Program-made: the position numbers and the translations under genes
Shown: one piece after another, positions 415 to 59,734 of the stretch
Numbering within the stretch: the first letter of the stretch is position 1
How the letters are laid out: each line of letters opens with the position of its first letter
IMG/VR virus record: IMGVR_UViG_3300027339_000002
Span: 1-61,187 of that record
Strand: one strand, 5' to 3'
DNA from: a virus
Taxonomy: Duplodnaviria > Caudoviricetes
Length of the DNA: 61,187 nt
The notes under the pieces: generated by a model
Database searches by the model: none
What the model was told of the DNA's origin: nothing
The model's input: the letters and a program-made list of their open reading frames with translations, nothing else

Positions 415-675
415 TCATTCTTTCAGTCTTGCTGTGATCAGCTGTAGTGTGAGAAGGGCGTTCGCTCGCGCGATCTTTAGTTCGCGCAACCAAGCACCGC
501 GGTGGTAGTTTGTGTAGACGAACGGACCGACACTTGACAGAACACGGTTGCCGAAAGGGCCCGCGGAGCACTTTTGAACAAACGCCCACTCGTCGTACTG
601 AATAGCAAGGCGGTCCATAGGATCACCATGTCGATACTTAGCTATCAGCTCGTCGATGTCCATGCGGCCCCGCAC
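415..675 (-). CDS. small hypothetical protein with C-terminal RL motif (LITARLKE)
   Basis: Abuts neighbouring genes on the minus strand; 86 aa. Confidence 0.7.
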   Translation of the reverse strand: MRGRMDIDELIAKYRHGDPMDRLAIQYDEWAFVQKCSAGPFGNRVLSSVGPFVYTNYHRGAWLRELKIARANALLTLQLITARLKE

Positions 676-1068
676 TCAGAACTTATTCACCTTGTTGATC
701 ATGGCCCGTTCAAACTGCGCCTGTGCATCCCAGCCGACGGCATTGCCGCCGAGTATGGCGCCTGCGTTTTCCGCGACGCGCGCTTTTACTGCTTCTTGCG
801 TTTGCAGCCACTTGAGCAGGTCTGCATCTTTTTTCAAAGACGGGCCGTTGATGACACCGATGCCGCTGATACGGTGAGCGACAGCGTTGATACGGTCCTG
901 CCGCTCTTTTTTCGCGAAAGACAAGACGTTGAGCCACGTGACAAAAGTCATCGGGGGCTTGAGCAGCTCAAGCGGTATGTATTGAGCGACAACAGCAAGT
1001 TCGTCTTCGGTCGGCGAGACGAAGTGGTTGTATTTGGTGATGATGGCGTCGAGGGTTTCTGCGGTCAT
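676..1068 (-). CDS. hypothetical protein
   Basis: ATGA overlap with helicase stop; 130 aa. Confidence 0.7.
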   Translation of the reverse strand: MTAETLDAIITKYNHFVSPTEDELAVVAQYIPLELLKPPMTFVTWLNVLSFAKKERQDRINAVAHRISGIGVINGPSLKKDADLLKWLQTQEAVKARVAENAGAILGGNAVGWDAQAQFERAMINKVNKF

Positions 1069-2471
1069 AACGATCCAAACAGGTCGAGAAGGTTGCGCAT
1101 GCGCTCGTTCTTGCCGAGCAGAATCTCGTAGACCTGTTCTTCGATCGTGTTTTTGGCCACGACGATGATGGTCTCGGTTTTCTTTTTCTGCCCCATGCGG
1201 TACTGGCGGCGGTTGCCCTGGGCAAACAGCTCGGCGTCGTACGTGGGGCAGGGCCAGATGGTCGTGGTACCGCGCGTAAGCGTCAAGCCGTGGGCGATAC
1301 TGCGCGGATGACCAAACAAGACGTCAAGTTGGCCAGCTTGGTAACGAGCGACGATAGCGTCTCGCTCTTTGTCAGGCGTGCTGCCGTCGATCACGGCATA
1401 ACTCAGCTTGGCTTTGGCTGCATGCTTGACCAACAGATCGCGTTGGTGCTTCCAGAAGAAGAACACGAGACTGTGCTGACGCTGAGCCACCATGTCGATG
1501 ATCATCTCGTAGCGCTCTTCGTCCACCACGCTGAACTTGTCATCTGTGGTGTAGAGCGCACCAGAACTGATCTGCAGCAGCTTGTTGGCCACGGCAGCAG
1601 CGTTGATGGCGATGGCGTCAGCCGGCACGCCAGACAGCCGTTGCTTGACTGCGGAGACCACAGACAAATAGATCTGATCGCGGCTCATGCGTTCGTATGC
1701 GTCACGCTGCTTTTTGGTCAGCTCCCAGTCCACCGTGTACTGATGGTTCGGCGGGATGTCCACGCAGTCTTCGAACTTGTGGCGGATCACGATGTCGCTG
1801 AGCAGGCCAAAAACGGCTTCTTCAGCGCCGGGCTTGTCCTGCCAGTTGATCGCGTTAGCGTTGCGCCCTACTTGCTGCGGGATGCACACGCTATTGCGAA
1901 ACGCATAGAAACTGGGGCCCAAGCGCTGCCCGCCGTCGAGCAGATAAACCTGATGCCACACGTCGGTGATGCTGCGGCCGTTGGGCGTACCCGTGAGGCC
2001 GGAGCGGTACTCGAAGTGCTTGGAAACCTTGGCCATGGCGCGACTGCGCTGGCTGGTGTGGTGCTTGTACGCAGTGATCTCGTCGACTACCAGTTCGTCG
2101 AATCGCTCGAAGAAAGCTTTCTTCTGCTTGGCGAGCCATACGGCAGCATCTACGTTGGTCACGTAAATGTCGGCGTCGGCCTTGAACGCCTCATCACGAT
2201 TGTCTGCTCGGGCGACTGATACGCGCATGTCTGGACAGAACTTGCGTGCGTCGTCAGCCCAGGCTGACTTGAGCAAGCTCTTGGGGGCGATGACCAGCAT
2301 ACACTTGGCCTTACCGCCCTTGCGACGCCGCCGAGCTGCGTAATGGACCAGACGCACGAACGTCTTCCCGGTACCAGGGTCGCTGGTGTCGTAGCGGATC
2401 GGCGTGCGGTCGGCGTGCTTCAAGCTGACCGCTTGATGCTTCATCGCTTTGGGGGGAAGTACGCGCGGCAT
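1065..2471 (-). CDS. SNF2-family (SF2) DNA helicase
   Basis: PGTGKT, LVIAPKS, VVDE, LTGTP, KLLQ, HGLTL and QGNRRQYRMGQ helicase motifs. Confidence 0.92.
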   Translation of the reverse strand: MPRVLPPKAMKHQAVSLKHADRTPIRYDTSDPGTGKTFVRLVHYAARRRRKGGKAKCMLVIAPKSLLKSAWADDARKFCPDMRVSVARADNRDEAFKADADIYVTNVDAAVWLAKQKKAFFERFDELVVDEITAYKHHTSQRSRAMAKVSKHFEYRSGLTGTPNGRSITDVWHQVYLLDGGQRLGPSFYAFRNSVCIPQQVGRNANAINWQDKPGAEEAVFGLLSDIVIRHKFEDCVDIPPNHQYTVDWELTKKQRDAYERMSRDQIYLSVVSAVKQRLSGVPADAIAINAAAVANKLLQISSGALYTTDDKFSVVDEERYEMIIDMVAQRQHSLVFFFWKHQRDLLVKHAAKAKLSYAVIDGSTPDKERDAIVARYQAGQLDVLFGHPRSIAHGLTLTRGTTTIWPCPTYDAELFAQGNRRQYRMGQKKKTETIIVVAKNTIEEQVYEILLGKNERMRNLLDLFGSL

Positions 2472-2734
2472 CAGTGCACCTCTTTCAAGCGAGTTCGACG
2501 TTCATCGGCGATCTCGGCGCACCGCTGCCGCAGACTCTCTCCCGACGGGTCGGTGTAAACATCGGCATGGCAGAAAAAAGAGAGCTGCAGCCCGAGCAAT
2601 CGGATAGCCGGGCACAGCAAAGGTGGTGACCCTTCTGCTTGCGCTTCGGCGATGAACTTGCTGAGCATGTCCACGACGTCGTTCAGCGCGTACGCTCCAG
2701 GCTGCATGTTGGCGACAATTTCAAAGCGGTTCAT
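2471..2734 (-). CDS. hypothetical protein (ends RRTRLKEVH)
   Basis: Start placed at the ATGA overlap at 2731-2734. Confidence 0.6.
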   Translation of the reverse strand: MNRFEIVANMQPGAYALNDVVDMLSKFIAEAQAEGSPPLLCPAIRLLGLQLSFFCHADVYTDPSGESLRQRCAEIADERRTRLKEVH

Positions 2735-3021
2735 GAGGTCAGCCGAGATGAGATGATGGCGGGCAAAAAACGAATGCAGCGTGCGCACGTGACTTGACTT
2801 GCGTCGAGAAAGGGTGCATCGCTCTTCAGGTCAGGTATGCGTCCGCACAAGTTGCGGTACAGCGGGCGTCCCGAGACCGTGCGCTCGGCGATGCGGTCTG
2901 GTACATAGTGCTGCACGGTACCGCTGGGTACGATGTACGGCCTGCGATCTTGGATCACTGCCTGCACGTACGCTTGATAATCTTCGAGCCGAGTAAAACC
3001 TTTCGGGACGCGCTCGTTCAT
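2731..3021 (-). CDS. hypothetical protein with C-terminal RL motif (IISSRLTS)
   Basis: ATGA overlaps at both ends; H, C and CxxC residues suggest zinc binding. Confidence 0.65.
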   Translation of the reverse strand: MNERVPKGFTRLEDYQAYVQAVIQDRRPYIVPSGTVQHYVPDRIAERTVSGRPLYRNLCGRIPDLKSDAPFLDASQVTCARCIRFLPAIISSRLTS

Positions 3022-4832: not shown

Positions 4833-4843
4833 GCGTAACTCCG

Positions 4844-5536: not shown

Positions 5537-5883
5537 TGCTTGCCCTTCTGCGCGCCGAGCAGGAACCACTTCCAGTCGCGTGCGATCGCCGGGTTCACAT
5601 ACGTGCCCTTGCGCGAGCGGCGGAAGTTGAACGAGTCCCTGTTGAGAGACTCGAAGATGGTGCGGAGGCGGTCTTCGTCGAGCGGTTTGACGGGCTCGTG
5701 TCGTGCATCCCGGAAACCAGGGTGCGTGCACTTGCCCCGCTCGCACTCGCAGTACGGGCTGCGGCAAGGCTTGAGTTCGCGGTCTTGGGCTGTGCAATTG
5801 GTGGCCATGCACAAGCCCATTTCATCGAAACGGTGCCGGCCGTCGCTGTGACCGGGGCAAGGGTCAGATTTCGATGCGGACAT
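5533..5883 (-). CDS. Cys-rich hypothetical protein
   Basis: Cys/His cluster followed by GTYVNPAIARDWKWF. Confidence 0.55.
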   Translation of the reverse strand: MSASKSDPCPGHSDGRHRFDEMGLCMATNCTAQDRELKPCRSPYCECERGKCTHPGFRDARHEPVKPLDEDRLRTIFESLNRDSFNFRRSRKGTYVNPAIARDWKWFLLGAQKGKQ

Positions 5884-6964
5884 GCTGCCCCCACGGCGGA
5901 ACGACGTCGGTGGTCATGACCCACAGCACCGGGTAATCCGGCGCCGTTTGAGGGAACGGGCCGTAGCCGTCAGTCAGGTAGATCAAGCATTTGGGGGTTT
6001 CGCCGAGCTCATCGAAGTGCGTGAACGGAGGGCGGAAGTCGGTACCGCCGCCGCCTTTGCTGACGAGCTTGAACTCGTCTTCCATGGAGAACTCATCCAT
6101 GTGGTTGATGCGCGCGTCACACGAGATGTGGATGGTTTTGACGGGGCGCACAGCATCGCGGATGGCCGAGATTTCGGCTGTGAACGCAGAGAGCACAGGC
6201 CCGTCGATGGAGCCAGAATCGTCAGTCACGACGCACACGCTCTCCATGACTTCGCTGTGCAGGCCGGGCAAATAAAAGCCGCTGGCCAGCATGCGCCGGT
6301 TGGGGCGCGTCCACTGATAGTCGTTTTTCGCGAAGGACGTGATGAACTGGCGCAGCATGGCCTTCCAGTCCACCTTGCTGTTCAGCATGTCGTCGACAAA
6401 GCGCTCGAGCGGTCCGCTCAGTTTGCCTTGCGCTTTGGCAGCCTGCGCAGCCTGAGCAGTGGCGATCTTCCACTCGGTCTCGACCATTTCGGCGTCAGCC
6501 GGATTGCCTTGTGCCGCGTCACGGATATCACACAAGCCGCCGTGCTCATCGTCAGGTTGGTCGGGCAGCAGCGAGTAGATGTGGTCCGCTGTCATGCCCT
6601 TGAAGGCGGGGTTGTGCAGCCACGTTTTGCCCAGCTCGAACCCGGCATCTTTGATGACGTCATTGATGACGTAGTCACCAGCGGCGTTCCACTTGCCAGG
6701 GCTTCGACCGTTACGACGCGTCAGATGATCGAACACGCAGTGGCCGACTTCGTGGGCCATAGCGGACTTGCGCAGCGCAGGCGTGAGATCACGCACGAAC
6801 TTCGCGTTGTAGAAGACGTGCTTGCCGTCAACGGCCAACGTCGGGATGGTGTTGTCTTCCACCAGCTTCAGACGGAGCGCCAGCGTACCGAAAAACGGCT
6901 GGTCGATGATCATGGCTGCGCGAGCGCGCGTGAGTTCAAGGAGAGCTTGTTGATCGACGGTCAT
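5864..6964 (-). CDS. putative metallopeptidase plus vWA domain protein (DUF2201-like)
   Basis: HEVGH (HExxH), WNAAGDYVIN, MIDAS-like DDSGS, GGGGTDF, YLTDGYG; start at the ATGA overlap 6961-6964. Confidence 0.9.
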   Translation of the reverse strand: MTVDQQALLELTRARAAMIIDQPFFGTLALRLKLVEDNTIPTLAVDGKHVFYNAKFVRDLTPALRKSAMAHEVGHCVFDHLTRRNGRSPGKWNAAGDYVINDVIKDAGFELGKTWLHNPAFKGMTADHIYSLLPDQPDDEHGGLCDIRDAAQGNPADAEMVETEWKIATAQAAQAAKAQGKLSGPLERFVDDMLNSKVDWKAMLRQFITSFAKNDYQWTRPNRRMLASGFYLPGLHSEVMESVCVVTDDSGSIDGPVLSAFTAEISAIRDAVRPVKTIHISCDARINHMDEFSMEDEFKLVSKGGGGTDFRPPFTHFDELGETPKCLIYLTDGYGPFPQTAPDYPVLWVMTTDVVPPWGQHVRIEI

Positions 6965-7248
6965 GATGTAAGGCGTTGGATTGAGATAAGAAGAACGGTT
7001 TGTTCGACAACTGCGAGGGCGCATGGGTTACCGCCCAGTGCTTGTATGTGCACTGTTCGCATCACGGTTCGCTCTTTTTCGCTGCCTACTACTGCTCGTC
7101 CCCACGCAGATAGCCATTGTTCTACTGTGGGGGAGCGTTGATGTAGGGTATACAGCGCATTAGCGAAAGCGCTTGTCTCGTGTCGGTTGTCTACGCTTAA
7201 CCGACTAAACGCATTGCAAGCACTTTGCTGACTATCCGTGAGTGCCAT
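6961..7248 (-). CDS. small helical protein, QA..GNP/RL family
   Basis: Ends QALGGNPCALAVVEQTVLLISIQRLTS. Confidence 0.65.
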   Translation of the reverse strand: MALTDSQQSACNAFSRLSVDNRHETSAFANALYTLHQRSPTVEQWLSAWGRAVVGSEKERTVMRTVHIQALGGNPCALAVVEQTVLLISIQRLTS

Positions 7249-7439
7249 GGGTTACCTTGCGCTGCTTGTTGTTTCCAGTGTTGTATCGAGCGATGCCTAG
7301 ACGCCAGAGACAACGTATTGAAATAAGCGTTGATGGAGTTGAGGCCGAGTTCTGCGAGCGCCCGTTGAAAGTGCGTTATTTCTTGCCGCTCTTCAGCGCT
7401 CAGGGATACTTTGCGGATAGTGCTCAAAGGTAGCCCCAT
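7197..7439 (-). CDS. small helical protein, QA..GNP/RL family
   Basis: Ends QQAAQGNPWHSRIVSKVLAMRLVG. Confidence 0.65.
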   Translation of the reverse strand: MGLPLSTIRKVSLSAEERQEITHFQRALAELGLNSINAYFNTLSLASRHRSIQHWKQQAAQGNPWHSRIVSKVLAMRLVG

Positions 7440-7448
7440 GATGTTCGC

Positions 7449-7697
7449 TTAGCCTTTCAGGCGTTCGACGGTAACTGCCGTCATGAGCGTTTTGGCCAGC
7501 TCTGTCGGGTTCGGTCCCTGCGCTTGCTGTTCGATCCAGTAAATCCACCGCAGCTGTTGGGCGTCGCTCCATCTGGCGAACTTCACGCAAAGCACTCTCC
7601 ATCCAGGCGATCCTTCTGCTCGCTTGTTCTGCATCACGCGTCGGAACAGAGCGATCAGTTGGAGTTCGTCGGGGGAAGGAGTGAAAGAACTTTGCAT
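7449..7697 (-). CDS. small helical protein, QA..GNP/RL family
   Basis: Ends QQAQGPNPTELAKTLMTAVTVERLKG. Confidence 0.65.
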   Translation of the reverse strand: MQSSFTPSPDELQLIALFRRVMQNKRAEGSPGWRVLCVKFARWSDAQQLRWIYWIEQQAQGPNPTELAKTLMTAVTVERLKG

Positions 7698-8500
7698 GCC
7701 ACTTCGTCGATTTCCCGACGCCGGAAAGTACTGATGCGCAGAGTGCGCGGGCTCACTGATGCCAACGGCTCCATTTCTTTGTGGAGCTGAATGAGCAAAG
7801 GGTCGTCCGTGAGGTTCAGCGCAAGGATGACCCCATGAAGGTTCTTGACGTTGTCCACGAGGGAATCGCGGAACACTGCTTTGGGGTCGCTGAGACGCTC
7901 GTGCATGGTACCGACCACTTCGCGGATGCGCGCGAAGATGTCGTTCACCGCTTTCTCTTGACGGGCTCGAACTGCTTGTTCGAGCTCATGCCGCACGCGC
8001 GCCATCTCGGTTTCACCGACATCGACACGAAAATCACTGGCGCTTGGCACAGGTTCGGGGTCGATACTGACGTAAAACTTCAAAGCGATCTTGGCGGCAT
8101 CCGGGTAGTCGCGAGGGTCGTACAACGTACCCAATCGCTGTCGTGCGGTCTGCACCAGCGCAGGATAGCCGTCAACGAACTCCCGCACACGGGTGTTGAA
8201 GGTGTCCTTGAGCTTGCGCATGTCCTGTGTGTACTGCATGAACAGCTTCGATGGGAGCAAGCGGCGACCGTCATCGGTCCACGGCAAAGTGTTCTTGTTG
8301 TGGTAGTCACGCAGGGCGTTTGCCGCCGACGCGATTGGCTTGAGGGCGTCAGCGTCAACCAGCAGCTTGTTGAAGCGGCCGGCATTCTTGGCGCCGTGAT
8401 TTTTTTCGATCTCGGAAGACGCGTGCTTGTCGTGCTTGCGCGCCGTCCATTGGCTGATGCTCAAGGTCATCAGCATCGCTTTGTGATTCAGCATGTTCAT
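7655..8500 (-). CDS. DUF3150-like protein, partner of phage AAA/vWA modules
   Basis: LSISQWTARKHD...NKLL...TLPWTDDGRRLLP...RLGTLYDPRDYP...FRDSLV...LNLTDD. Confidence 0.7.
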   Translation of the reverse strand: MNMLNHKAMLMTLSISQWTARKHDKHASSEIEKNHGAKNAGRFNKLLVDADALKPIASAANALRDYHNKNTLPWTDDGRRLLPSKLFMQYTQDMRKLKDTFNTRVREFVDGYPALVQTARQRLGTLYDPRDYPDAAKIALKFYVSIDPEPVPSASDFRVDVGETEMARVRHELEQAVRARQEKAVNDIFARIREVVGTMHERLSDPKAVFRDSLVDNVKNLHGVILALNLTDDPLLIQLHKEMEPLASVSPRTLRISTFRRREIDEVACKVLSLLPPTNSN

Positions 8501-8607
8501 TCCTTCAGGCGAGCAGACGTCTCAAAGATGACGAAACGTCAATCAGCTCGGTTGTGTGCCCACGCCAATGTCCTTCGCATGAATCTTTCCAACTCATCGT
8601 GGGTCAT
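8497..8607 (-). pseudogene. interrupted micro-ORF with RL tail (MTHDELERFMRRTLAWAHNRAD*RFVIFETSARLKE)
   Basis: Hand translation; ATGA overlaps at both ends; one in-frame TGA at codon 23. Confidence 0.55.
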
Positions 8608-8795
8608 GCTTTGAGCCTTAACGCGATCAGCTCTATTTCGTACCAAAGCTTAAGCGTTTGCGCCAGCAACTCGCCATTCTCCGCTCGCCGGAGCATGTCG
8701 TGCCGGTCTTGAAACAGACGTGTGTAGCCCTTGTGCACAAGGATGACCCACGCTTCTTCTTCAGGGGTGAAAAAGTCGTCGATGGTCATAGTCAT
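8604..8795 (-). CDS. small protein with RL tail (ELIALRLKA)
   Basis: 3' part of track ORF 8604..9023; start uncertain. Confidence 0.6.
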   Translation of the reverse strand: MTMTIDDFFTPEEEAWVILVHKGYTRLFQDRHDMLRRAENGELLAQTLKLWYEIELIALRLKA

Positions 8796-8824
8796 CGGTG
8801 AAGATAGGCCCCTGGGCATAGTGG

Positions 8825-8998
8825 TCAACGCAGGCGTCGTCGAACTGATTCGGCCAGTAGTTGTTCCGCTATTTGCATAGCTGCAGAATCGTTGTAGAAA
8901 GCTCTCTCGAGGCATCGGACCATCCCTCCTTTGGAGTCGAAGAAGGGATGACACAAACCTCGTCGGTGCATGTCCGCCCATACGTGCAGCATGTTCAT
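8825..8998 (-). CDS. small protein with RL tail (AESVRRRLR)
   Basis: Start at the ATGA overlap 8995-8998. Confidence 0.55.
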   Translation of the reverse strand: MNMLHVWADMHRRGLCHPFFDSKGGMVRCLERAFYNDSAAMQIAEQLLAESVRRRLR

Positions 8999-9168
8999 GA
9001 CCGCGTCCGCGTCGAAACGGCAAGGATCAAAGCGCGATTGAACAGCTCCCGGATCTGGTACTTCGCTCCGGTTGTTTTTGCTCGTAGCCATGCTAAGTAC
9101 AGCTCGCGGTATGTGTGTTCGTAAACGACGCGGCAATATTTCTTGGGTAGCGTGCCCTGAAGCTGCAT
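8995..9168 (-). CDS. small helical protein (ends LILAVSTRTRS)
   Basis: ATG at 9168 downstream of a hairpin; coupled to the next gene. Confidence 0.5.
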   Translation of the reverse strand: MQLQGTLPKKYCRVVYEHTYRELYLAWLRAKTTGAKYQIRELFNRALILAVSTRTRS

Positions 9169-9188
9169 GAGGCCAAAGGCACGCCCTA

Positions 9189-9213
9189 GTTCCTCCGAGT
9201 AACTCGGAGGAAC
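9189..9213. repeat. perfect 12-bp inverted repeat
   Basis: GTTCCTCCGAGT-A-ACTCGGAGGAAC just downstream of the ATPase stop. Confidence 0.8.
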
Positions 9214-9221
9214 CCACCGCT

Positions 9222-10301
9222 TTAGATCAGCACGGAGCTGTTGTCGATCGCCCATTTGTGGAACGCCTTGCACTGCTGCAGGTCGGAGTCGCGCTGCAGT
9301 GCCGTGCGCATGAACACGACTTGGAACTCGACCTGCATGCGGTTGCTGTACTCGACCAGACGATCGAAGTTGTTCGGCGACGCTTTCATCGCCATGGCGA
9401 TGCTCAGCGCGTACAGCACCGACGGCGATTCAGGCACCGGCACCTTTTCGGGCGCCAGCAGGATCTTGTCGATGCTCGGCATTTCCGCCGCGTCCTTGCG
9501 GAAGGCCATGAACTCACCGGCCGGGCCCTCGCCAACCGTGCCCTTGATGAGCTCGTGTTCTTCCTGCATGCTCAAACGCGGAGCCTTGGGATCGACGTGC
9601 GAGATGATTTGGCTGGCGAACGCCCACGAGCGCGGCGACGGGAAGGCACGCTCGTTCTTGGCCGGGTCGAAGCTGTGCAGCAGGCTGGGCTTGAACTTCA
9701 TGAAGGCGATCACGTCTTGGTGCACGCCGTTCTTCAGCGCCCAGGACGCCCAATCGTCCACGTCCACGTCGAAGTCGATGTGGACGAGGCGGTTGGCCAG
9801 CGGGGCAGGCATGCGGCTGGTGACGCCGCGGTCACCGTCGCGGTTGCCGGCGGCGATGATGGCCCAACCTTCAGGCAGCACGTAGTTGCCGATGGAGCGG
9901 TTCAGGATCAGCTGATAACCGGCAGCCTGCGTGGCGGGCAATGCACTGTTCATTTCGTCGAGGAACAGGATACCGCGCGTGGGATTCGGGATCATGGTGT
10001 CGGCTTTTTCGCCTTTCTTGAGCTTGTAGCCTGCGACGTCACCGGCACGCACAAACGTGGGCGGCAAGAAGTCGGGCGGCAGCCACTTCATCACGCCGCC
10101 GTCTGCGTCCGGCACGGGAAAGCCCTTGAGGTCCACCGGGTCCAGCAAGTTCAAGCGAACGTCGCGCAGCTCCATGTCGTTGTCATGGGCAGACGTGGTG
10201 ATGACGTCAGACTTGCCGATGCCGGGCGGGCCCCAGAGGAACACGGGCCGCTTGATGCTGATGCAGTGGTTGATGACGCGGGAGACGGAAGAAGGCTTCA
10301 T
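9222..10301 (-). CDS. MoxR/dynein-related AAA+ ATPase
   Basis: GPPGIGKS Walker A, LFLDE Walker B, AAGN sensor, PLANR arginine finger, PSPRSW. Confidence 0.92.
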   Translation of the reverse strand: MKPSSVSRVINHCISIKRPVFLWGPPGIGKSDVITTSAHDNDMELRDVRLNLLDPVDLKGFPVPDADGGVMKWLPPDFLPPTFVRAGDVAGYKLKKGEKADTMIPNPTRGILFLDEMNSALPATQAAGYQLILNRSIGNYVLPEGWAIIAAGNRDGDRGVTSRMPAPLANRLVHIDFDVDVDDWASWALKNGVHQDVIAFMKFKPSLLHSFDPAKNERAFPSPRSWAFASQIISHVDPKAPRLSMQEEHELIKGTVGEGPAGEFMAFRKDAAEMPSIDKILLAPEKVPVPESPSVLYALSIAMAMKASPNNFDRLVEYSNRMQVEFQVVFMRTALQRDSDLQQCKAFHKWAIDNSSVLI

Positions 10302-10310
10302 GATGCTCTT

Positions 10311-10601
10311 TCATGAGTTGGTGGATTGATCATCGCCACGCAAACGGCGACTCACTTGTTCGGCCTGAATGACAGACCAGATGGTTGCGACTTCTCGCAT
10401 ACCTGAGACAAACACGTTGAGGCCGCGGCGCTCAACGATGTGTCGATATTGGGGGTGCAGCTTACTGAATGCGTTGTAAGACCGCGTAGTCATCTTGACA
10501 TGGTGGACGTCAGGAGAAATAGCGCGCACCCAGTTGTACAGCTCTTGCGCGCTCAGCGTTTCAAGCTTTTCGCTACAGCTGTCGATATGATCTCTCTCCA
10601 T
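10311..10601 (-). CDS. small protein, paralog of 10553..10807, RL motif (VSRRLRG)
   Basis: Aligns by eye with its neighbour. Confidence 0.6.
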   Translation of the reverse strand: MERDHIDSCSEKLETLSAQELYNWVRAISPDVHHVKMTTRSYNAFSKLHPQYRHIVERRGLNVFVSGMREVATIWSVIQAEQVSRRLRGDDQSTNS

Positions 10602-10807
10602 AACGGGATCTCTTGACGGATGTCGACGAGGTACACGACGAACGTGTGCGCATACGAGTGGAGAAGTGTTTCACCGCGCAGAGCGCAGATCATTCCGTAC
10701 GTCTTGCGTGATACTTCAACGCAGTTATGCGGGCACTTCTCGATGGCCTCGATCAGCTCTGAAGGCGATGCGCAATCTTCAAGGCGGCCACTTGCTCTCG
10801 GGTCCAT
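10553..10807 (-). CDS. small protein, paralog of 10311..10601
   Basis: GGAG RBS before ATG at 10807; ends STAVAKSLKR. Confidence 0.6.
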   Translation of the reverse strand: MDPRASGRLEDCASPSELIEAIEKCPHNCVEVSRKTYGMICALRGETLLHSYAHTFVVYLVDIRQEIPLWREIISTAVAKSLKR

Positions 10808-11058
10808 GCTTTGCTCTCCAGCCACGGCTCTAACAACGGTCGGCACGCTAAAGCATCGAGGTACTTACAAACCCCTGCGTACATGCTGAACTCGTTAGAG
10901 TCGTCAAACTCACACCATCCTCCTACCTGTATGCATTGAAACAGGTACGTAAGCCCGACCAACTGCCCATGACTTAAGTCGCCGATGTCGCATGGTCCGT
11001 CGTTCATGGATTTCGCCAATTCACGAGAGATATCGGCGTCACCAAAATCGGTGCTCAC
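10753..11058 (-). CDS. small protein with RL tail (LKIAHRLQS)
   Basis: GTGA overlap with the upstream stop. Confidence 0.6.
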   Translation of the reverse strand: MSTDFGDADISRELAKSMNDGPCDIGDLSHGQLVGLTYLFQCIQVGGWCEFDDSNEFSMYAGVCKYLDALACRPLLEPWLESKAWTREQVAALKIAHRLQS

Positions 11059-11276
11059 TTCTGATCCCCGAGCGCTTGCTCGATCGACATGATGCGCGGG
11101 TCACGAGACTTGAAGCCCGGAGGACGTTGAAACGTATGCACCAGCGTGTTGTGCTTGGGGAACTTCATGGTCGGTCGCCAATCGACAATGTAGTTCGCCA
11201 AGTCACGTTTTGCTTGGATCAGTGCAACTTGGCTGGGCGTCGGAGCCTTGCCGACGATAATGATGGACTGGCTCAT
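11055..11276 (-). CDS. hypothetical protein
   Basis: ATGA-coupled; phage-typical codon usage. Confidence 0.65.
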   Translation of the reverse strand: MSQSIIIVGKAPTPSQVALIQAKRDLANYIVDWRPTMKFPKHNTLVHTFQRPPGFKSRDPRIMSIEQALGDQK

Positions 11277-12936: not shown

Positions 12937-13955
12937 TCCTTGGAGTCGAGGTGCGCCACCAGGGCGGCGATGCCTTCTTGGCGCTTGGCGATCTCGGCCA
13001 CCAGCTTCTTGGGCTTGGCCTTGATGGCTTCCAGGCGAGCGATCTCGGCTTCCTGGGCAGCGATCAGGTCGTAGACCTCGCTGTCCTTGAAGTCCTTGAT
13101 GTCGACACCGTTGATCAGGGTCTTGTTGGTGATTTCGATGACGGCGGTCTTGTTGGTCATGATGCGGGCTTTCAAAAGTTCGGCCTCGACTTTGTCGATA
13201 TGGCCTTGGGCTACGGAAATGTGAGCGTTGATTCGAGCGCTCACGGCTTTGAGGTTGAGGGCAGACTCGGCTTCGTGGTTGATCGGGCTGTCACCGGCAA
13301 TCGCAGCATCGGCTTTTGCGAGTTGCTTGACGTACTCGTCGCATGCTCTCCAGCCATTTTGAGTGACGTAGTACTTCAGCGAGACCGTGTTGACGCAGAT
13401 CAGATGGAGCGGACTGCACAGCTTGTTGATCACGCCGTCGGCCGGGCGCTGCAGCTCGATGCAAATCTGTTCAAGGCCGCAGCCACGAACAAACAGCAAC
13501 TTGAGCTTGAGCAGTTCGGCTTCCGACCAGATCATGCCGTGTCGAGCGCGACGCTCATTGTCACGCTGTTTGAACAATGTGTTCCAGACATCGCCGTTCT
13601 GGTACGCCGGCTTGACCGTCGGCGCCTTGGGTTTTTCTGAATCAGCGTTTTTGACGCGATCCTCCCAAAACGCAAACGGCGGCAGATCCGAGAAGCCAGA
13701 CGAACCGACGCGATCTTCGATGTCGTAAATGTCATCAAAGTAGCGACGCAAGTGCTCTCGGTTTGCTGGTCCGTCGATGCTGGAAGAAGAAAGCACTCCG
13801 GCTGGAGCCACGGCGAATCGGGTCGCGAACTGCATGATCACTGTTCGCGCACGCGCGTGGCTTTCGCCGGCGCACGCCTTGTACATCTCGTGGAATGTAG
13901 CTTCGTTCTCGAGCACGATTGCGATCTCGTGCAGCTTATGTGCTAGGGCATTCAT
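12933..13955 (-). CDS. composite hypothetical protein with a Myb/SANT-like HTH segment and a C-terminal coiled domain
   Basis: WSEAELLKL...G..LEQI..ELQR; C-terminal 75 aa from ATG at 13160 have much stronger C/G-ending codon bias. Confidence 0.65.
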   Translation of the reverse strand: MNALAHKLHEIAIVLENEATFHEMYKACAGESHARARTVIMQFATRFAVAPAGVLSSSSIDGPANREHLRRYFDDIYDIEDRVGSSGFSDLPPFAFWEDRVKNADSEKPKAPTVKPAYQNGDVWNTLFKQRDNERRARHGMIWSEAELLKLKLLFVRGCGLEQICIELQRPADGVINKLCSPLHLICVNTVSLKYYVTQNGWRACDEYVKQLAKADAAIAGDSPINHEAESALNLKAVSARINAHISVAQGHIDKVEAELLKARIMTNKTAVIEITNKTLINGVDIKDFKDSEVYDLIAAQEAEIARLEAIKAKPKKLVAEIAKRQEGIAALVAHLDSKE

Positions 13956-14200
13956 GATTCTCCTTCTGTGAGTCTGAGGAATACGTGAGCAGCTTCCAAA
14001 GATTCAAACTCACGCGGCGGGTATCTGGCGTCGTCCTCAGTACGTACAGCAATGAGGTACGCTTTGCCTGATGATGCGTCGACCCTGAGTGACACGTACG
14101 TTTGATTGCGCCATATCCCTTCGAATTTTTCGACGGGGTATGTGTTTAGGAAGATGCTGGTGCCGTTCGTCGGGTCTATCACCCAAGAAGTCTCAGCCAC
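13952..14200 (-). CDS. tandem-array paralog 12 (divergent)
   Basis: Ends SLEAAHVFLRLTEGES. Confidence 0.65.
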   Translation of the reverse strand: MAETSWVIDPTNGTSIFLNTYPVEKFEGIWRNQTYVSLRVDASSGKAYLIAVRTEDDARYPPREFESLEAAHVFLRLTEGES

Positions 14201-14379
14201 GTTACAGCCTCCTTAAGTGAGCCAGCGCGTCGCGACTCACCGAACAGCGTTTTTCGTACACGCCAATGATCGTGGCCGAGAAGCTTGTAAATCAGCACAT
14301 CGCCCTTGATGCTTATAGAGCAGCGCGATGATCCAAGAGTGGCGTGCTCTTGCACAGGTGGAAACCTGATAACTTTCAT
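14179..14379 (-). CDS. tandem-array paralog 11
   Basis: MKVIRF..SSRC..HW..SLKEAVTWLRLLG. Confidence 0.7.
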   Translation of the reverse strand: MKVIRFPPVQEHATLGSSRCSISIKGDVLIYKLLGHDHWRVRKTLFGESRRAGSLKEAVTWLRLLG

Positions 14380-14627
14380 GTCTTCCCGGCTGAACTGCAT
14401 GGCATAACCCTGTATGCGGCGTACGCGTGCGATAGTTTTTTGAACGGGCCGATCGTCGACAAAGTCCATTCGTCAGACGAATAGTTTGGTACGAGGTACC
14501 AGCTTTTGCGGTCCATGAATTTGGCGATTACGTAGTCACGGGTTACGCCGCCTTCAAAAATTACACAGCGCAGCTTCCTGTTTCTGTGCGTTGATGCGCC
14601 ACGGATATCTTTGTGGACGGTCAACAT
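14376..14627 (-). CDS. tandem-array paralog 10
   Basis: MLTVHK..KLRCVI..SW..KKLSHAYAAYRV. Confidence 0.7.
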   Translation of the reverse strand: MLTVHKDIRGASTHRNRKLRCVIFEGGVTRDYVIAKFMDRKSWYLVPNYSSDEWTLSTIGPFKKLSHAYAAYRVMPCSSAGKT

Positions 14628-14884
14628 GACACAAGCCTCAGATAAAGAAGCGCGTCCTTGAGCTTTGGGAAGAAGTCATACACAGCCACAGATTCGTACG
14701 ACGCGAGGTGCCATCCTGGGTGGCCCACAAACTTCGCGACGTAGACCTCGTCTTGGAGAGATGGCACGTACCAACATTCTGTTCTGGTCGCAACATTGAA
14801 GATTCCGCTGCGAATAAGCAAGCCGTCGCTCTGGTAGCAAGGGTGCTGTTTGTAGTACGAACGGACGCATCGGTAAGCGCTCAT
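14621..14884 (-). CDS. tandem-array paralog 9
   Basis: YVAKFVGHPGW..KLKDALLYLRLVSC. Confidence 0.7.
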   Translation of the reverse strand: MSAYRCVRSYYKQHPCYQSDGLLIRSGIFNVATRTECWYVPSLQDEVYVAKFVGHPGWHLASYESVAVYDFFPKLKDALLYLRLVSC

Positions 14885-15081
14885 CGGTTCAGCTTCCACG
14901 AAACGATCGTCGCCTTCAATGTAGGGGCGCTTATGTATATACGCGCAGGGAAATTAAGCCATACGCGCCAGTGCGTTTCGTCCCTTCGTCTCGATATGAC
15001 GATCCAGCCGTGTTGGTCGCGTACCGCACAACGCAGACTCGCTGGATACAAGCGTCGATGAACGGTGAACTCTTTTTTCAT
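14881..15081 (-). CDS. tandem-array paralog 8
   Basis: MKKEFTVHRR..SLRCAV..HW..TLKATIVSWKLNR. Confidence 0.7.
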   Translation of the reverse strand: MKKEFTVHRRLYPASLRCAVRDQHGWIVISRRRDETHWRVWLNFPARIYISAPTLKATIVSWKLNR

Positions 15082-15281
15082 GCTAGCAGTCTCCGCTGTG
15101 CAATAGCTGCTCTCAACGTTGGTGCTGTATACGGCACGCCGTCTACCCAAAACGTCCAGCCTGAACCAGGCGTGCGTTTCAGGAAAATCGCAGTGATTTC
15201 GCCGTTGTGATCCAAGGCCTGTGCGGTTGCTCGTGGCATCTCGCCGTCCTTGAAGCGTTGTACTTTGATTTTCTGGTTCAT
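15078..15281 (-). CDS. tandem-array paralog 7
   Basis: MNQKIKVQRF..PRATA..GW..TLRAAIAQRRLLA. Confidence 0.7.
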   Translation of the reverse strand: MNQKIKVQRFKDGEMPRATAQALDHNGEITAIFLKRTPGSGWTFWVDGVPYTAPTLRAAIAQRRLLA

Positions 15282-15478
15282 CGCTTCATCCTCAGGATGA
15301 CCAATGACGCCTTGATGGTTGCGGCAAGTGGTGCAAAGGTCTCGTTGCAGTACCAGAGATTGTCTCTGCGCCTGCGGTACATGACCACGGTGCCCCACAT
15401 AACGTCGCGGTCTGTGAGTACACAACGTGCCCGCGTATATGACTCTTTCTCTTGGTAGCGGATGATTTTGTACTTCAT
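15278..15478 (-). CDS. tandem-array paralog 6
   Basis: MKYKIIRY..TRARC..LW..TIKASLVILRMKR. Confidence 0.7.
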   Translation of the reverse strand: MKYKIIRYQEKESYTRARCVLTDRDVMWGTVVMYRRRRDNLWYCNETFAPLAATIKASLVILRMKR

Positions 15479-15684
15479 CGCAACAGCCTCATAGCGATTC
15501 GGTTAGCTTGGCGCTTTACGAGAGCTTCGCGAAGTCTTGGATATTCTTGGCCTAGTACTCTCCACGTACCGCGGTCTGTTCGATACGCGTAACGGAAAAG
15601 TTTTCCTCGCCATACCATGTAGACAGAGCGATCTTCGAAGATCAGCGGAAGTTCACAGTAGGGTAAAGGTGCGACGGCTCTCAT
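15475..15684 (-). CDS. tandem-array paralog 5
   Basis: TW..RLREALVKRQANRIAMRLLR. Confidence 0.65.
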   Translation of the reverse strand: MRAVAPLPYCELPLIFEDRSVYMVWRGKLFRYAYRTDRGTWRVLGQEYPRLREALVKRQANRIAMRLLR

Positions 15685-15899
15685 CTGGTGAGTCTCCACA
15701 CGGCCAACAGCTCCTTCAGCGTGCGTGCATACAGGGTTTCGTCATCTACGTACGCACACCAACGGTTTCCGTTGAGCTTGGTTTCCTTGCAGAAGTACAT
15801 CTTTTCGTTACGGATCACCAGACTCGCCCAGGCACGAAGAGCATCTGGTCGTTGGGGCCGAATCCGTTTAATGGTCAGCCCTGGATATTTCGTGCTCAT
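15681..15899 (-). CDS. tandem-array paralog 4
   Basis: LTIKRI..LRAWA..MYFC..RW..TLKELLAVWRLTR. Confidence 0.7.
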   Translation of the reverse strand: MSTKYPGLTIKRIRPQRPDALRAWASLVIRNEKMYFCKETKLNGNRWCAYVDDETLYARTLKELLAVWRLTR

Positions 15900-16114
15900 C
15901 GTTTGAGCTTCCACAGAACTAAGAGCTCCTTGAGCGTGTTGGCTTCAATGCGCTCAGTGTCTATATGCAACGTCCACAGCTTCGTGGCCCTCGACCTGAA
16001 GCAAAAGTACATCCCGTTGTCGATGTTCAGGACAGCTGTAGCTCGGAGTGATGGAGAGGCGGCGAGTGAGCTGCGCGTAACGTGGATAGGGCGACGTTCA
16101 CATAGCCAGTTCAT
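15896..16114 (-). CDS. tandem-array paralog 3
   Basis: IHVTR..LRATA..MYFC..LW..TLKELLVLWKLKR. Confidence 0.7.
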   Translation of the reverse strand: MNWLCERRPIHVTRSSLAASPSLRATAVLNIDNGMYFCFRSRATKLWTLHIDTERIEANTLKELLVLWKLKR

Positions 16115-16314
16115 CTCATAATCCTCCAGCGCACGATCGCTTCTTTGAGCGTGCGCGCTTCGCCATATCCCCCGTACTTCATGAGATACCGCCACTCTCC
16201 TCCCCACCTCCGCCATATGGGGCTGTGCGTCACATCTCCGACCTGTACAAACAGCTCGGCTCTCATGTCGTAAGTCCCGGTGCCGCGGGGTGTGCGGACG
16301 ATTGAGTACTTCAT
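16111..16314 (-). CDS. tandem-array paralog 2
   Basis: MKYSIVR..MRAEL..EW..TLKEAIVRWRIMR. Confidence 0.7.
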   Translation of the reverse strand: MKYSIVRTPRGTGTYDMRAELFVQVGDVTHSPIWRRWGGEWRYLMKYGGYGEARTLKEAIVRWRIMR

Positions 16315-16556
16315 GGTTTGAGCTTCCACGCTACCAAGGCCACGCGGAGCTTTCTATGGCCGGTGAGCTTTGCCTTAGACGGAAATTGAGTCCACCCCCG
16401 ACCACGTTCGTAATAGGCGATGCGAGACCACCTACCAGATTCAAGTTCACGAGCGGCGTATGCGAAATCGCATACGGGACCGAACCTGTGGATACCAAAA
16501 AGCCTCACGATCTTGATCGTGAGGCCTCCGATCTCGACTGTAGGGACGCGCTTTAT
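16311..16556 (-). CDS. tandem-array paralog 1 (start uncertain: ATA at 16556 or GTG at 16508)
   Basis: IKIVRL..GW..KLRVALVAWKLKP. Confidence 0.6.
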   Translation of the reverse strand: MKRVPTVEIGGLTIKIVRLFGIHRFGPVCDFAYAARELESGRWSRIAYYERGRGWTQFPSKAKLTGHRKLRVALVAWKLKP

Positions 16557-54727: not shown

Positions 54728-54841
54728 TCAGCTCTTCAAGCGAGCCGTAACGGCGCGGAGTTCACTGCTGCACCGCAGGCATCCTCCGTCTTGACCGAGT
54801 ATGCACAAGCAGCGCGGACAAAGCGAGGGGCGATACTTCAT
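54728..54841 (-). CDS. 37-aa zinc-finger microprotein with RL tail
   Basis: MKYRPSLCPRC...CLRCSSELRAVTARLKS. Confidence 0.55.
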   Translation of the reverse strand: MKYRPSLCPRCLCILGQDGGCLRCSSELRAVTARLKS

Positions 54842-56160: not shown

Positions 56161-56392
56161 GAGTACCTTTCGAAATAGCGCGAAGACGATCGGCGACTTC
56201 GCGCACGACCTGTTCCTTCGCTTTGTTACGCGGGGGCAAAGGCGCCCACGCGAGGTATCTGCCGTCATCAGACCAGCACCCGGTGACACAGATGTGGCCT
56301 TGGGTGAGCAGCAGAACTTTGGAGCCGCCCGGCGGTTTGGCGTCGCCAGCAAGCGGATACTGATATTCAGGGAAGCCATCAATGTGCGGCAT
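56000..56392 (-). CDS. small phage protein (DUF551-like core)
   Basis: PPGGSKVLLLT..G...G.W...AWAPLP; tail overlaps the dUTPase by 161 nt. Confidence 0.55.
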   Translation of the reverse strand: MPHIDGFPEYQYPLAGDAKPPGGSKVLLLTQGHICVTGCWSDDGRYLAWAPLPPRNKAKEQVVREVADRLRAISKGTHDDFLDSFAFSVSAFSRLADPHAGSAGRAEPEDQSAVAHGQQPVHASDPRRSR

Positions 56393-56606: not shown

Positions 56607-56824
56607 TCTGGCGCCTCTTCGATGCTGTCGGGCAGAGCCTTGAATTCGACTTCATAGCCTGCCCTGCGCAGTGCTTCTTTCATCTCGTCGATCTGGTTAA
56701 GTACCAAGATCAGCTGCGATGTACGAGCAGACAAACGAGCTTGCAAGCGCTCAATACGCTCTTCAAGCTTTTGGATGCGGCGATTAACTGTCACACGAGC
56801 TCCAACAATCCAAGTTTCAGGCAA
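56603..56824 (-). CDS. coiled-coil hypothetical protein
   Basis: Heptad repeat; start uncertain. Confidence 0.55.
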   Translation of the reverse strand: MPETWIVGARVTVNRRIQKLEERIERLQARLSARTSQLILVLNQIDEMKEALRRAGYEVEFKALPDSIEEAPE

Positions 56825-58077: not shown

Positions 58078-58081
58078 AGGA

Positions 58082-58333
58082 TCAGCCTTTCAGACGCATT
58101 GCGGCGCGTCGTGCGATCTCGTTTTCGATTTCGCGCAGAGTGTCGGTCAGACGACGCGTACCATCGTTTGTTTGATTGAGCATGCGCGCCGCCAGATGGC
58201 AGATGATGTCTTCAGGCAAACTGAAAGTACTAGACCCGGTTGATGTAGATGAATGCTCGAGCAGCGTGAAGCCCGATGTAGCTGGAGCCCTATGAAGGTC
58301 CCAGCACTGCGCTCGTTCAACAACCTCGATCAT
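58082..58333 (-). CDS. small protein with RL tail (RAAMRLKG)
   Basis: ATGA overlap with the ligase stop. Confidence 0.65.
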   Translation of the reverse strand: MIEVVERAQCWDLHRAPATSGFTLLEHSSTSTGSSTFSLPEDIICHLAARMLNQTNDGTRRLTDTLREIENEIARRAAMRLKG

Positions 58334-59241
58334 GGCATGTCAGCCGCGTGCCGCTCACCCAGGTACACCGGGTGGCGGGGTTTGTCCTTCACGCCCACGG
58401 GGAAGAACTTGTACTTGACGATCTTGTTCACCCAGTCCATGCGCGCGCGGTCAGCCGCGGTGAAGCCGGTGCCGATTTCAAACGATACGCCGCTGTGGAT
58501 GTCGCGCACGGCCAGCGCGCCCATGGTGCCCTTGCCAGTCAAACCAGCCTTGGCCTTGCTGCGTTTGGTGCGGCCCAGGTTGTCGGTCTCAGCTTCGTTG
58601 CCGTTGTGCATCTCTTCGATGATGCCCAGCACGACAGCTTCGCTGTCTTCGAAGCGCTTGACCTTGAGCATGTACTGCTCGCGGGCAGTGGAACGGCCAT
58701 GCTTGTACAGGCCCATGCCGCTGCGCAGGATCAAGCCCTCGTAACCCAGGGCGATTTGCTTGGCCTCGTATTCGAGCAGCGCGTCTTCATCGTTGATGTG
58801 AACGTGTTCGTGGACGACGATCTTGACGTTGGCTTCACCTTTGAGGCGAGCAGCGACTTGACGCTCGGTGCCCCACTGCTCCACGTAGTTGCGCACATAG
58901 GCCAGCCGATTACTGAATGCCTCAGGGCGGTCATGCACATCAAACACATGGAACGTGGCTTCGGGCTCACCGGCGTGGCTCATCACCGCTGAGTTCGTCA
59001 CGCGGTACACGTCGTCAGCGGTGGGGGAGCCGACAATCAGTTCACCGTCCAGACCGTCGAACTGAGGCTTGCCCGACAGGGCGGCGAAGATGGCCTTGTT
59101 CGGGATGTCCAACAGCTTGCGGCTGACCAGCCGCTTGTTGAGCACAACGGCACGGATGCCGTCGAGCTTCGGCGATGCGAACAGCGGGTACTGCAGAATC
59201 TTGAAATCAGCCGGCGAAGCCAGCATGGGTTTGAATGACAT
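58330..59241 (-). CDS. lig: ATP-dependent DNA ligase
   Basis: SPKLDGIR, LDGEL, FHVFD, EGLILR, LKVK, IGTGF, RHP; AAGGAG RBS before ATG at 59241. Confidence 0.95.
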   Translation of the reverse strand: MSFKPMLASPADFKILQYPLFASPKLDGIRAVVLNKRLVSRKLLDIPNKAIFAALSGKPQFDGLDGELIVGSPTADDVYRVTNSAVMSHAGEPEATFHVFDVHDRPEAFSNRLAYVRNYVEQWGTERQVAARLKGEANVKIVVHEHVHINDEDALLEYEAKQIALGYEGLILRSGMGLYKHGRSTAREQYMLKVKRFEDSEAVVLGIIEEMHNGNEAETDNLGRTKRSKAKAGLTGKGTMGALAVRDIHSGVSFEIGTGFTAADRARMDWVNKIVKYKFFPVGVKDKPRHPVYLGERHAADMP

Positions 59242-59249
59242 GATGCTCC

Positions 59250-59471
59250 TTAACAATTCCAGTTTTGGATCACTGCCCTGAGTGCATCCAGGTGCAGCGA
59301 CGACCGTGCTTGAGCCGATGCGCGCACATGCGCGATTGCGGCGGGGGCATGCTTGAAGCGGCCTGATGACAGAATGCGTGTGCCTACGCGCTTTGTCCCG
59401 TTCTCGATGACAGAGAATACGCCCCAGCCTTCAGCCAAGGCGGCTGCCTGCATGGCCGGCGTCCACTTCAC
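59250..59471 (-). CDS. small protein, paralog of 59468..59734
   Basis: WTP...AALAEGW...RF....A..HV...AQ; GTGA overlap. Confidence 0.6.
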   Translation of the reverse strand: MKWTPAMQAAALAEGWGVFSVIENGTKRVGTRILSSGRFKHAPAAIAHVRASAQARSSLHLDALRAVIQNWNC

Positions 59472-59734
59472 AGAAGTCGCGCCTTGATCATGAGTGCTAC
59501 GGCTTTTCGGCACGTGCTGTCTCCTTTTTGAGCTTGGTCTGTGACATACCGTTCAGCTTCTTTGCGTGAGCTGAATCGGGTTGTGTGATCAAGCACACGC
59601 GCATGGCGGAATACCATGATGCGGTTGTGCGCCAAGACGTTTAAGCGCCAGCCTTGCTCACGAGCCGCTTCGTGGTTAGAAGGCTCCCAGCCCAAAGCAC
59701 GTAAGCGGAGGTGGATGTCACTGTGTTTGATCAT
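59468..59734 (-). CDS. small protein with RL tail (MIKARLL)
   Basis: WEP...AAREQGW...RF....A..YV..QAQKGD. Confidence 0.65.
   Translation of the reverse strand: MIKHSDIHLRLRALGWEPSNHEAAREQGWRLNVLAHNRIMVFRHARVLDHTTRFSSRKEAERYVTDQAQKGDSTCRKAVALMIKARLL

Follow-up and report, generated by a model that had tools for sequence, protein, structure and literature searches.

The window analysed here, the full 61,187 bases of IMG/VR record IMGVR_UViG_3300027339_000002, is a complete or near-complete virus genome in which small early proteins recurrently end in a short arginine-leucine (RL) tail. Late podophage genes (a P22-type portal, the large terminase, an SU10-type adaptor and others) occupy the plus strand from ~23,000 to 54,400, and the replication and early genes, the tail-bearing ones included, lie on the minus strand on both flanks of this late block. 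The tail is widespread and old, is partly overprinted by translation signals and is enriched in one gene module, formed by an ATPase, a DUF3150-like protein and a metallopeptidase-vWA protein. Early phage genes are for the most part small orphans that offer no handle for study, and here one Arg, one Leu and the chain end make up an easily mutated feature that links ~25 small genes in one genome.

When 43 kb of the window were compared by megablast with 50,697 phage records, no match was returned, leaving no DNA-level relative among them. The window primase-polymerase and its counterpart in Pseudomonas phage KPP25 (locus L071 in our set) share 42% identity; uncultured relatives at 34–64% make up loci L002–L070, of which L027 and L070 are close relatives of the region of a tandem gene array described below, with a core ~88% identical in DNA. 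A further 80 loci (L072–L151) were gathered through alignment of the DUF3150-like protein, among them L072, a close relative with ~85% DNA identity. The gene list is a dynamic-programming call rather than the output of a trained gene finder, and counts are uncorrected for relatedness.

Arg-Leu tails in the early genes

An earlier note on this DNA had proposed that the tail is enriched over background and missing from late structural proteins, and both proposals are borne out. When all stop-to-stop frames of at least 40 codons were counted independently of gene calls, R-L-x-x-stop closed 15 of 216 early sense frames, compared with 3 of 208 early antisense, 1 of 219 late sense and 2 of 218 late antisense frames (1–3 per ~210 in the three controls). 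The stricter pattern h-x-x-R-L-x-x-stop, with h hydrophobic, was found in 13 early sense frames versus 1, 1 and 2 in the controls, and the looser [RK][LIMV]-x-x-stop in 24 versus 4, 3 and 4. Measured from the stop, RL is sharply concentrated at −4 (15 cases), with 0–5 cases at each other offset from 2 to 24. In our own gene list, RL starts within the last ten residues of 19 of 71 early proteins and in none of 25 late proteins.

Thirteen minus-strand ends had been listed in the note, of which nine (at 415, 2731, 6961, 7197, 7449, 8604, 10753, 54728 and 58082) are exact R-L-x-x-stop ends, two (at 8825 and 59468) are one register off and two (at 8497 and 10311) fail. Independent public gene calls match seven of ten tail-bearing open reading frames (ORFs) by exact sequence, and the starts of the genes at 8604, 8825 and 54728 are uncertain. 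All window tail genes described here lie on the minus strand and are given with their last residues before the stop. The small early protein at 415..663 (82 amino acids, ITARLKE) has an exact independent gene call and keeps RL in all seven members of its cluster. The 87-residue protein at 2471..2734, also called independently, ends RTRLKEVH, with RL six residues from the end, and the 96-residue Cys-pair protein at 2731..3021 ends ISSRLTS and is encoded between a PD-(D/E)XK nuclease and an SNF2 helicase. Locus L019 has a similar C..CC..RLTA-stop protein at the equivalent position. KPP25 also has a small gene there, between a RecB-type nuclease and a helicase (L071, 23576–23878); its product ends RAKLRSQPAVA, the only tail-like small-protein end in that phage.

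Three tandem paralogues of one helical family, also present in L010, L024 and L050, follow at 6961..7248 (95 amino acids, SIQRLTS), 7197..7439 (80 amino acids, LAMRLVG) and 7449..7697 (82 amino acids, a predicted four-helix bundle ending TVERLKG). The public collection holds the exact sequence of the last, close homologues of the second and a variant of the first that differs by one residue. The first two overlap by 52 nucleotides (7197–7248) in different frames, and close homologues of both are kept in close relatives; the overlap is probably real because these homologues were called independently in public data. Within 8497..8597, the end listed as TSARLKE is not a protein end, as its own frame is interrupted by a stop 13 codons upstream; it comes from reading the last bases of a 30-residue ORF (8505–8597, SLRRLLA) in another frame. 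This ORF is probably a remnant, and L072 has two full genes (63 and 99 amino acids) in its place.

The gene at 8604..8819 (~71 amino acids, LIALRLKA; the 71-residue version is absent from the public collection) has an L072 orthologue ending LIALRLKE, and that at 8825..9217 (at most 130 amino acids, with the chosen start not in the public collection) ends SVRRRLR. The 96-residue product of 10311..10601 ends VSRRLRGDDQSTNS; it had been listed as an R-L-x-x-stop end and instead finishes SRRLRGDDQSTNS, 11 residues after RL, a form with an extension after RLRG that is known from relatives, its L072 orthologue ending SRRLRGDD. At 10753..11058 (101 amino acids), KIAHRLQS is followed by a 59-nucleotide gap to the next start, with no start beside the stop, and the L072 orthologue ends AHRLQN. 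On the right flank, 54728..54841 (VTARLKS) encodes 37 amino acids from ATG or up to 86 from GTG; it is the last gene of a leftward block with no real gene downstream, has a weak codon score, and its 37-residue version is not in the collection. The 83-residue protein at 58082..58333 ends AAMRLKG, and RLKG is invariant in its six-member cluster, preceded by M, T or A. The 88-residue protein at 59468..59734 ends MIKARLL and carries the C-terminal module of the helical family, A-Q-x-G-D followed by a helix and RL.

The largest group is a tandem array of 12 paralogues of 65–87 amino acids (13952..16622), with the end consensus T-L-K-x-A-h-h-x-W-[RK]-[LIM]-x-x-stop. The statement that all 12 end in [RK][LIMV] variants holds for the nine with [RK][LIM] at −4/−3; the other three deviate (RLVSC in register −5, RLTEGES in register −7, and YRVMPCSSAGKT). 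Array turnover is very fast, with 12 members in the window and 15 in the close relative L027; array DNA of the window aligns with L027:4300–7435 and L070:39–3251 at ~70% or not at all, compared with 88% in the flanks. In L002, the place just after the primase-polymerase that the Trp-rich array takes in the window is occupied by about nine Cys-rich, zinc-ribbon-like small genes (12364–14105), all nine of which end in ARLRG plus a short extension.

Other genes of the window can be noted briefly. Two small helix-turn-helix proteins (12152–12409 and 11273–11704), one sigma-70 region 4-like and the other a MarR-like winged helix, both below Pfam cut-offs, are encoded just downstream of the array and the two genes following it. 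A DksA-like zinc-finger protein at 59731–59949 (PHROG 54, 8.6e-11) stands among the early genes and lacks the RL tail. A possible DNA-modification or nucleotide-pool gene set (11701–12204, 55441–56379, 56791–58077 and 60474–60944) comprises, in that order, an Nmad5-like domain, a dUTPase_2-like protein, a group-1 glycosyltransferase of 428 amino acids with atypical codon usage and a dATP/dGTP diphosphohydrolase-like N-domain. The phage's largest gene (48422–54418) encodes a late protein of 1998 amino acids with no Pfam match.

Families, predicted folds and spread through the clade

A hidden Markov model of the array recovers all 12 array genes and nothing else in the window, which marks them as one family. 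The AlphaFold2 model of an array protein (35 sequences; predicted local distance difference test, pLDDT, 92) consists of five strands and a helix at residues 56–66 of 67, with block pLDDT values of 97 and 91 in that helix; the family is a Trp-rich sheet with a conserved Trp, W41. For the helical protein at 7449..7697 (21 sequences, pLDDT 89), helices are predicted at residues 9–27, 33–42, 45–60 and 66–81 of 82, the last of which bears RL with a pLDDT of 91 over residues 71–80. The same tail is thus predicted on a five-strand sheet plus helix and on a four-helix bundle, in agreement with the earlier claim of different cores. It had also been described as a free short linear motif, which does not hold: neither model places it in a flexible segment of the kind that disordered motifs occupy, and in both it is the last turn of a confidently predicted helix. 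In these models the tail, R/K-[L/M/I]-x-x-COOH, closes a C-terminal amphipathic helix as its last turn, and it recurs on several small early families.

The count of about 25 proteins with different cores survives in part, in that the cores differ but are fewer, the array being one family and the helical paralogues another. The proteins at 59468 and 8604 were placed by hand in the helical-family alignment, with which they share a C-terminal module, A-x-x-G-[D/N]-P, then a helix, then R-L. Profile comparison (hhalign) of nine clade families gave matches only in the C-terminal 8–30 columns, with probabilities of 13–72%, except for one homologous pair, and because matches are confined to these columns we consider the tail-bearing cores truly different. 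BLASTP of the non-array tail proteins against all window frames found no pair below an E-value of 0.05, and tblastn of the window's small proteins against loci L002–L026 found no match at 1e-2. Structure searches with the two tail models gave no significant match in the PDB (Foldseek, best E-values 0.55 and 1.7), a VIA wide search with the array model assigned no fold (best Z 5.0), and an ESM Atlas search with the 59468 protein gave no lead (best score 0.76). No tail protein exceeded a family cut-off among 95 window proteins scanned against Pfam or was matched among 49 scanned against PHROGs, two tail proteins had no NCBIfam match, and of 31 proteins of relatives none passed the Pfam cut-off, with two weak sub-threshold matches.

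The tail is not private to this genome and runs through the whole phage clade. The expectation that it would be enriched in related phages holds for its [RK]L[TKR] form and fails for the exact R-L-x-x-stop pattern, which occurs in 24 of 2548 versus 25 of 2630 cases in relatives; the exact pattern is unenriched because tails there occupy other registers. Among 449 non-identical small proteins encoded downstream of the primase-polymerase, [RK]L[TKR] was found at 48 of 3592 tail positions versus 88 of 36107 internal positions, a 5.5-fold enrichment in the last ten residues (p 3e-17) that rises to 26-fold with a Gly following. By BLAST family, 37 of 360 bear the tail, with paralogues and our own gene calls counted. 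Loci L002, L003, L022, L023 and L033 have A-R-L-R-G plus 1–8 residues; elsewhere the tails read K-L-T-[RQ]-stop (L010), R-L-T-[SGKQ] (L050 and L024), Q-L-T-[GK] (L038 and L014) and R-L-K-[PQ]-stop (L056), and eight genes of L074 end in ARLKQ, ARLKS, LRLKA and the like. Judged by eye, each genome seems to favour one tail variant whatever the family (RLRG in L002, KLT[RQ] in L010, RLT[SGK] in L050 and ARLK[QS] in L074).

A profile of the helical family matched at least 150 representatives (50%-identity clusters) at an E-value of 1e-3 or better in 1.84 billion proteins, and 126 representatives, at most 50% identical to one another, were aligned. The tail Arg column (R in 113, K in 11) ranks second in conservation after Met1, so that this is the best-kept residue after the initiator in a family that has otherwise drifted to ~20% identity. 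The next column is L in 68, M in 49, I in 6, V in 2 and F in 1, and exactly two residues lie beyond it in 96 of the 126, namely T, K or R and then G, S, K, E or R.

Amino-acid selection and translation signals

The Arg-Leu core is a protein-level signature, selected on amino acids, because its residues are kept while synonymous sites drift freely. In nine array orthologue pairs between the window and L027, the last 13 codons retain 78% amino-acid identity (91/116) compared with 60% (325/540) elsewhere, at equal synonymous change (48% in the tail and 47% in the rest), as expected from the earlier proposal that conservation acts on amino acids. The helical family keeps a basic residue whether its codon is CGC, CGT, AGG, AGA or AAG. 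In the non-array tails of the window, Arg is encoded by CGN in eight of ten cases and Leu by CTG, CTT, CTC, TTA and TTG; across the clade, tail Arg uses all six codons, and TTR Leu codons are as frequent in tails (17/76) as internally (767/4007, p 0.46). The tail is present without a start codon adjoining the stop in the genes at 10753, 7197 and 54728. Among 26 ATGA-coupled early junctions of the window, 16 have other residues at −4/−3 (KG, FT, AD, LE, EA, RT, GL, GW, HH and others), and in KPP25, which has the same coupling style, R-L-x-x-stop was read by eye in none of 56 early coding sequences called in GenBank, where the tails coded by Shine-Dalgarno sequences are KE, GG, RG and WE.

The translation signals are equally visible. 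The earlier caveat that KG and KE endings double as the Shine-Dalgarno sequence of the next gene proved justified and extends to RG endings. In the array, the Arg/Lys codon is AGA, AGG or AAG within TGG-AGA or TGG-AAG, which places GGAG or GGAA 8–9 bases before the overlapping ATGA. In L002-type relatives, the second Arg and the Gly of A-R-L-R-G (AGA GGA, CGA GGT GAG) always lie 5–8 nucleotides before the next start, even where the gene's own stop is up to 27 nucleotides further on. A Thr or Lys that follows the tail Leu is usually encoded by the A-rich ACA or AAA/AAG, and the ATGA overlap forces an NNA codon at the very end. Codon choice and the two closing residues are therefore nucleotide-driven, being shaped by the Shine-Dalgarno sequence, an A-rich spacer and the ATGA start.

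The gene module, a candidate contact point and known systems

The non-array tails of the window cluster around three minus-strand genes. A DUF2201-type protein (5864..6964; PF13203 4.6e-48, PF09967 4.7e-20) has an N-terminal metallopeptidase-like domain and a vWA domain; in 15 orthologues H75, H80, D248, S250, S252, T308 and D332 are invariant, and the consensus stretches AHEVMHC and DTSGS indicate an HExxH peptidase domain and an intact metal-ion-dependent adhesion site (MIDAS) motif (DxSxS, T, D). The DUF3150-like protein at the module centre (7655..8494, 279 amino acids) matches PF11348 with an E-value of 0.0027 and 17.5 bits, below the 24.9-bit cut-off, and is conserved in 15 orthologues and the 80 further loci. 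The third gene (9222..10301) encodes an AAA+ ATPase of putative MoxR/midasin type, of 359 amino acids (PHROG 1297 'ATPase', 6.1e-106), whose sole relative of solved structure is the midasin AAA domain (1.8e-7 over residues 8–80) and whose Pfam AAA match is below cut-off (E-value 0.0075). NCBIfam gave no match to the module proteins.

In the clade the order ATPase, tail gene or genes, DUF3150-like gene, tail gene or genes, vWA-peptidase recurs. At loci with a DUF3150-like protein of at least 43% identity, [RK]L[TKR] tails are found in 18 of 68 small proteins inside the module versus 8 of 165 outside (odds ratio 7, p 8e-6). More distant loci (contigs to 165 kb) have [RK][LIMV]xG in 8 of 72 inside versus 10 of 474 outside (p 9e-4); in some of these phages a separate small gene between the ATPase and DUF3150-like genes ends in F-K-T-K-Q-R-L-L-G-K or similar, and in the family seeded from such genes 32 of 39 members have [RK][LIMV]xG in the last 16 residues. 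These findings lend indirect support to the AAA+/vWA-peptidase machine, the first hub candidate named in the earlier note. Gene gain and loss occur at the module junctions: between its DUF3150-like and vWA-peptidase genes, L072 (3524–4903, corresponding to window 6961–7697 and 8497–8600) has none of the three helical-family members.

We tentatively favour the view that the tip is a common contact point for one partner, most likely a component of this module, because unrelated folds keep it, usually at a fixed distance from the C-terminus, and because its Arg is the residue that the largest family conserves best. The ATPase, DUF3150-like and metallopeptidase-vWA module, where the tail genes sit, would be the best candidate partner; the variable protein bodies would supply specificity and the constant tip the contact. 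MIDAS sites take a carboxylate from their ligand, as in integrin I domains and in midasin with Rsa4 or Ytm1. Our guess is that the free C-terminal carboxylate, or in relatives the Glu after RLRG, is a candidate ligand that might complete the MIDAS metal site, with the Arg and Leu fitting beside it.

Several observations weigh against this contact-point view. Counts are inflated by paralogy, and the 'outside' sets of the module test include spurious ORFs. The module enrichment depends on the pattern used, as [RK][LIMV]xG at the clade loci (13/68 inside, 17/165 outside, p 0.085) and [RK]L[TKR] at the distant loci (2/72 inside, 18/474 outside) show no significant difference. The array, the largest tail-bearing group, adjoins the primase-polymerase outside the module, and because its Arg sits inside GGAG or GGAA, nucleotide and protein constraint are inseparable there. 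AGR codons make up 38 of the 76 Arg codons of clade RL tails compared with 557 of 3413 internal ones (16%, p 2e-11), and the L072 orthologues are too shallow to separate tail from body (0.81 conserved in each). The fixed-carboxylate idea is weakened because L002-type tails carry 1–8 residues after RLRG, with R-G tracking the next start codon. The tip also belongs to a helix that is well folded, which leaves room for an Arg with a solely structural role.

That last point leads to the alternative that survives best, which we regard as possible but doubtful: that Arg-Leu seats or caps each family's own C-terminal helix, for example through an Arg-Trp contact and a last core Leu, in a few old small-protein superfamilies that multiplied without any common partner. 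The tail does lie within high-confidence helices of compact models, conserved Trp residues occur with it (array W41, and in the helical family W33 and W51, both within its top ten columns), many window tails belong to just two families, and helices commonly stop at a Gly after RL[KR]. Such seating would leave unexplained why the same tip appears on a helical bundle, a sheet plus helix and Cys-rich proteins that share no detectable homology beyond the last 8–30 columns, and why the Arg outranks every core position of the helical family, whose ten most conserved columns include no acidic residue. Nor does a buried contact need the strict two-residue spacing to the C-terminus, and tails look alike across families within a genome.

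An improbable alternative is a stability or degradation tag, the tip being recognised by a protease or unfoldase of the host or phage that times the removal of early proteins, or else protecting them. ClpX recognises C-terminal peptides such as ssrA and the tails of MuA and SspB, and a tag of this sort would suit the fixed distance to the free C-terminus, the confinement to small early proteins and the presence of a peptidase and an AAA+ ATPase among the tail genes. The tails, however, end in polar or small residues (mostly K/T/R then G/S/E/K) and not in the non-polar LAA type of ssrA, and the tip is predicted to be helical and packed rather than a free peptide.

Very improbable, and as a sole cause already largely refuted, is that the motif is a by-product of gene junctions, produced by the next gene's Shine-Dalgarno sequence, A-rich spacer and ATGA overlap, or an inherited DNA cassette (consensus A[AG]G CTC A[CA]A NNA TGA) reused at gene insertions. 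The five-fold enrichment of AGR at the tail Arg, near-identical DNA across families and phages (AGG CTC ACA TCA TGA in L050, AAG CTC ACA TCA TGA in L024, AAG CTC ACA CGA TGA in L010), the L002-type R-G spacing held whatever the distance to the gene's own stop, and the two overlapping RL frames of the window remnant (8497–8540) all fit such an origin, but the CGN and varied Leu codons, the RL-free ATGA junctions of the window, the lack of the motif in KPP25, tails without an adjacent start, R or K in 124 of 126 helical-family representatives, and tail amino acids better kept while synonymous sites diverge as fast as elsewhere do not. Two further candidates were rejected: a ubiquitin-tail mimic (LRLRGG), as the predicted folds are not beta-grasp, the tails are helical with KG/KE/TS-type ends and RLRGG occurs in one relative only; and a macrolide-type R-L-R stalling peptide, which needs a drug and fits L002-type tails only.

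A bolder version of the contact-point view, which we think unlikely, would make the module a remodelling or cleaving machine with the R-[L/M]-x-x-COO− tip as its universal handle, the carboxylate completing the MIDAS site, and the small proteins, array included, as interchangeable adaptors that bring in host targets such as defence proteins. Whatever its role, the tail links the at least 150 public cluster representatives to each other, and gene position links tail genes to an ATPase/vWA-peptidase module whose role in phages has only been guessed at. Should the tip prove to be a docking site, knowing its partner would assign a role both to the module and to a whole class of orphan genes, and the hypervariable array would be a candidate library of host-directed adaptors; if it is only structural, it offers a clean case of Shine-Dalgarno overlap and protein selection jointly shaping C-termini. 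A search of the open-access literature, which leaves subscription journals uncovered, found no description of this tail.

Parts of the system resemble known ones. A MoxR ATPase and a metallopeptidase-vWA fusion have been noted in group 2.2 jumbo phages, with a proposed role in virion assembly (Iyer et al. 2021, PMC7824862). The window pairs a putative MoxR/midasin-like ATPase with a MIDAS-bearing metallopeptidase-vWA protein, in the manner of the MoxR-vWA chaperone/cochaperone pairs described there; in the parts of that account available to us, neither small accessory proteins nor a C-terminal motif are mentioned (PMC7824862). Unlike the jumbo-phage pair, the window module belongs to the replication/early block of a podophage genome of 61 kb, with a DUF3150-like gene and interleaved RL-tailed genes. 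Another likeness is to midasin with its MIDAS domain.

In coupled operons, the Shine-Dalgarno sequence of the next gene biases C-terminal amino acids, although our literature search found no paper on exactly this bias. It accounts for the KG, KE and RG endings and the AGR codons of RL tails, and leaves unexplained the CGN Arg codons, the Leu, the family-wide invariance and the coupled junctions that lack RL. C-terminal docking motifs such as the HbYX of proteasome activators, PDZ ligands and the ClpX-binding tail of SspB are flexible peptides whose binding pockets are known. Like them, the RL tail is short, sits on otherwise different proteins and keeps a fixed distance from the free C-terminus, as the −4 peak of the window and the spacing in the helical family indicate, with L002-type extensions as the exception; unlike them, it is predicted to be a folded helix end and has a different sequence, so that it is a docking candidate only. 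Viral adaptors that combine a constant docking box with variable bodies include HIV Vif with its SOCS/BC box and the PRANC/F-box ankyrin proteins of poxviruses. The tail proteins have no sequence or fold relation to these (the SOCS2 and Vif rows of the Foldseek search have E-values above 1), and the analogy is one of logic only. In that logic, the RL tail is a constant, predicted C-terminal helix on many fast-evolving paralogues, including a hypervariable array, and an adaptor set of this kind, if real, would be the phage counterpart of the viral SOCS-box and F-box adaptor libraries.

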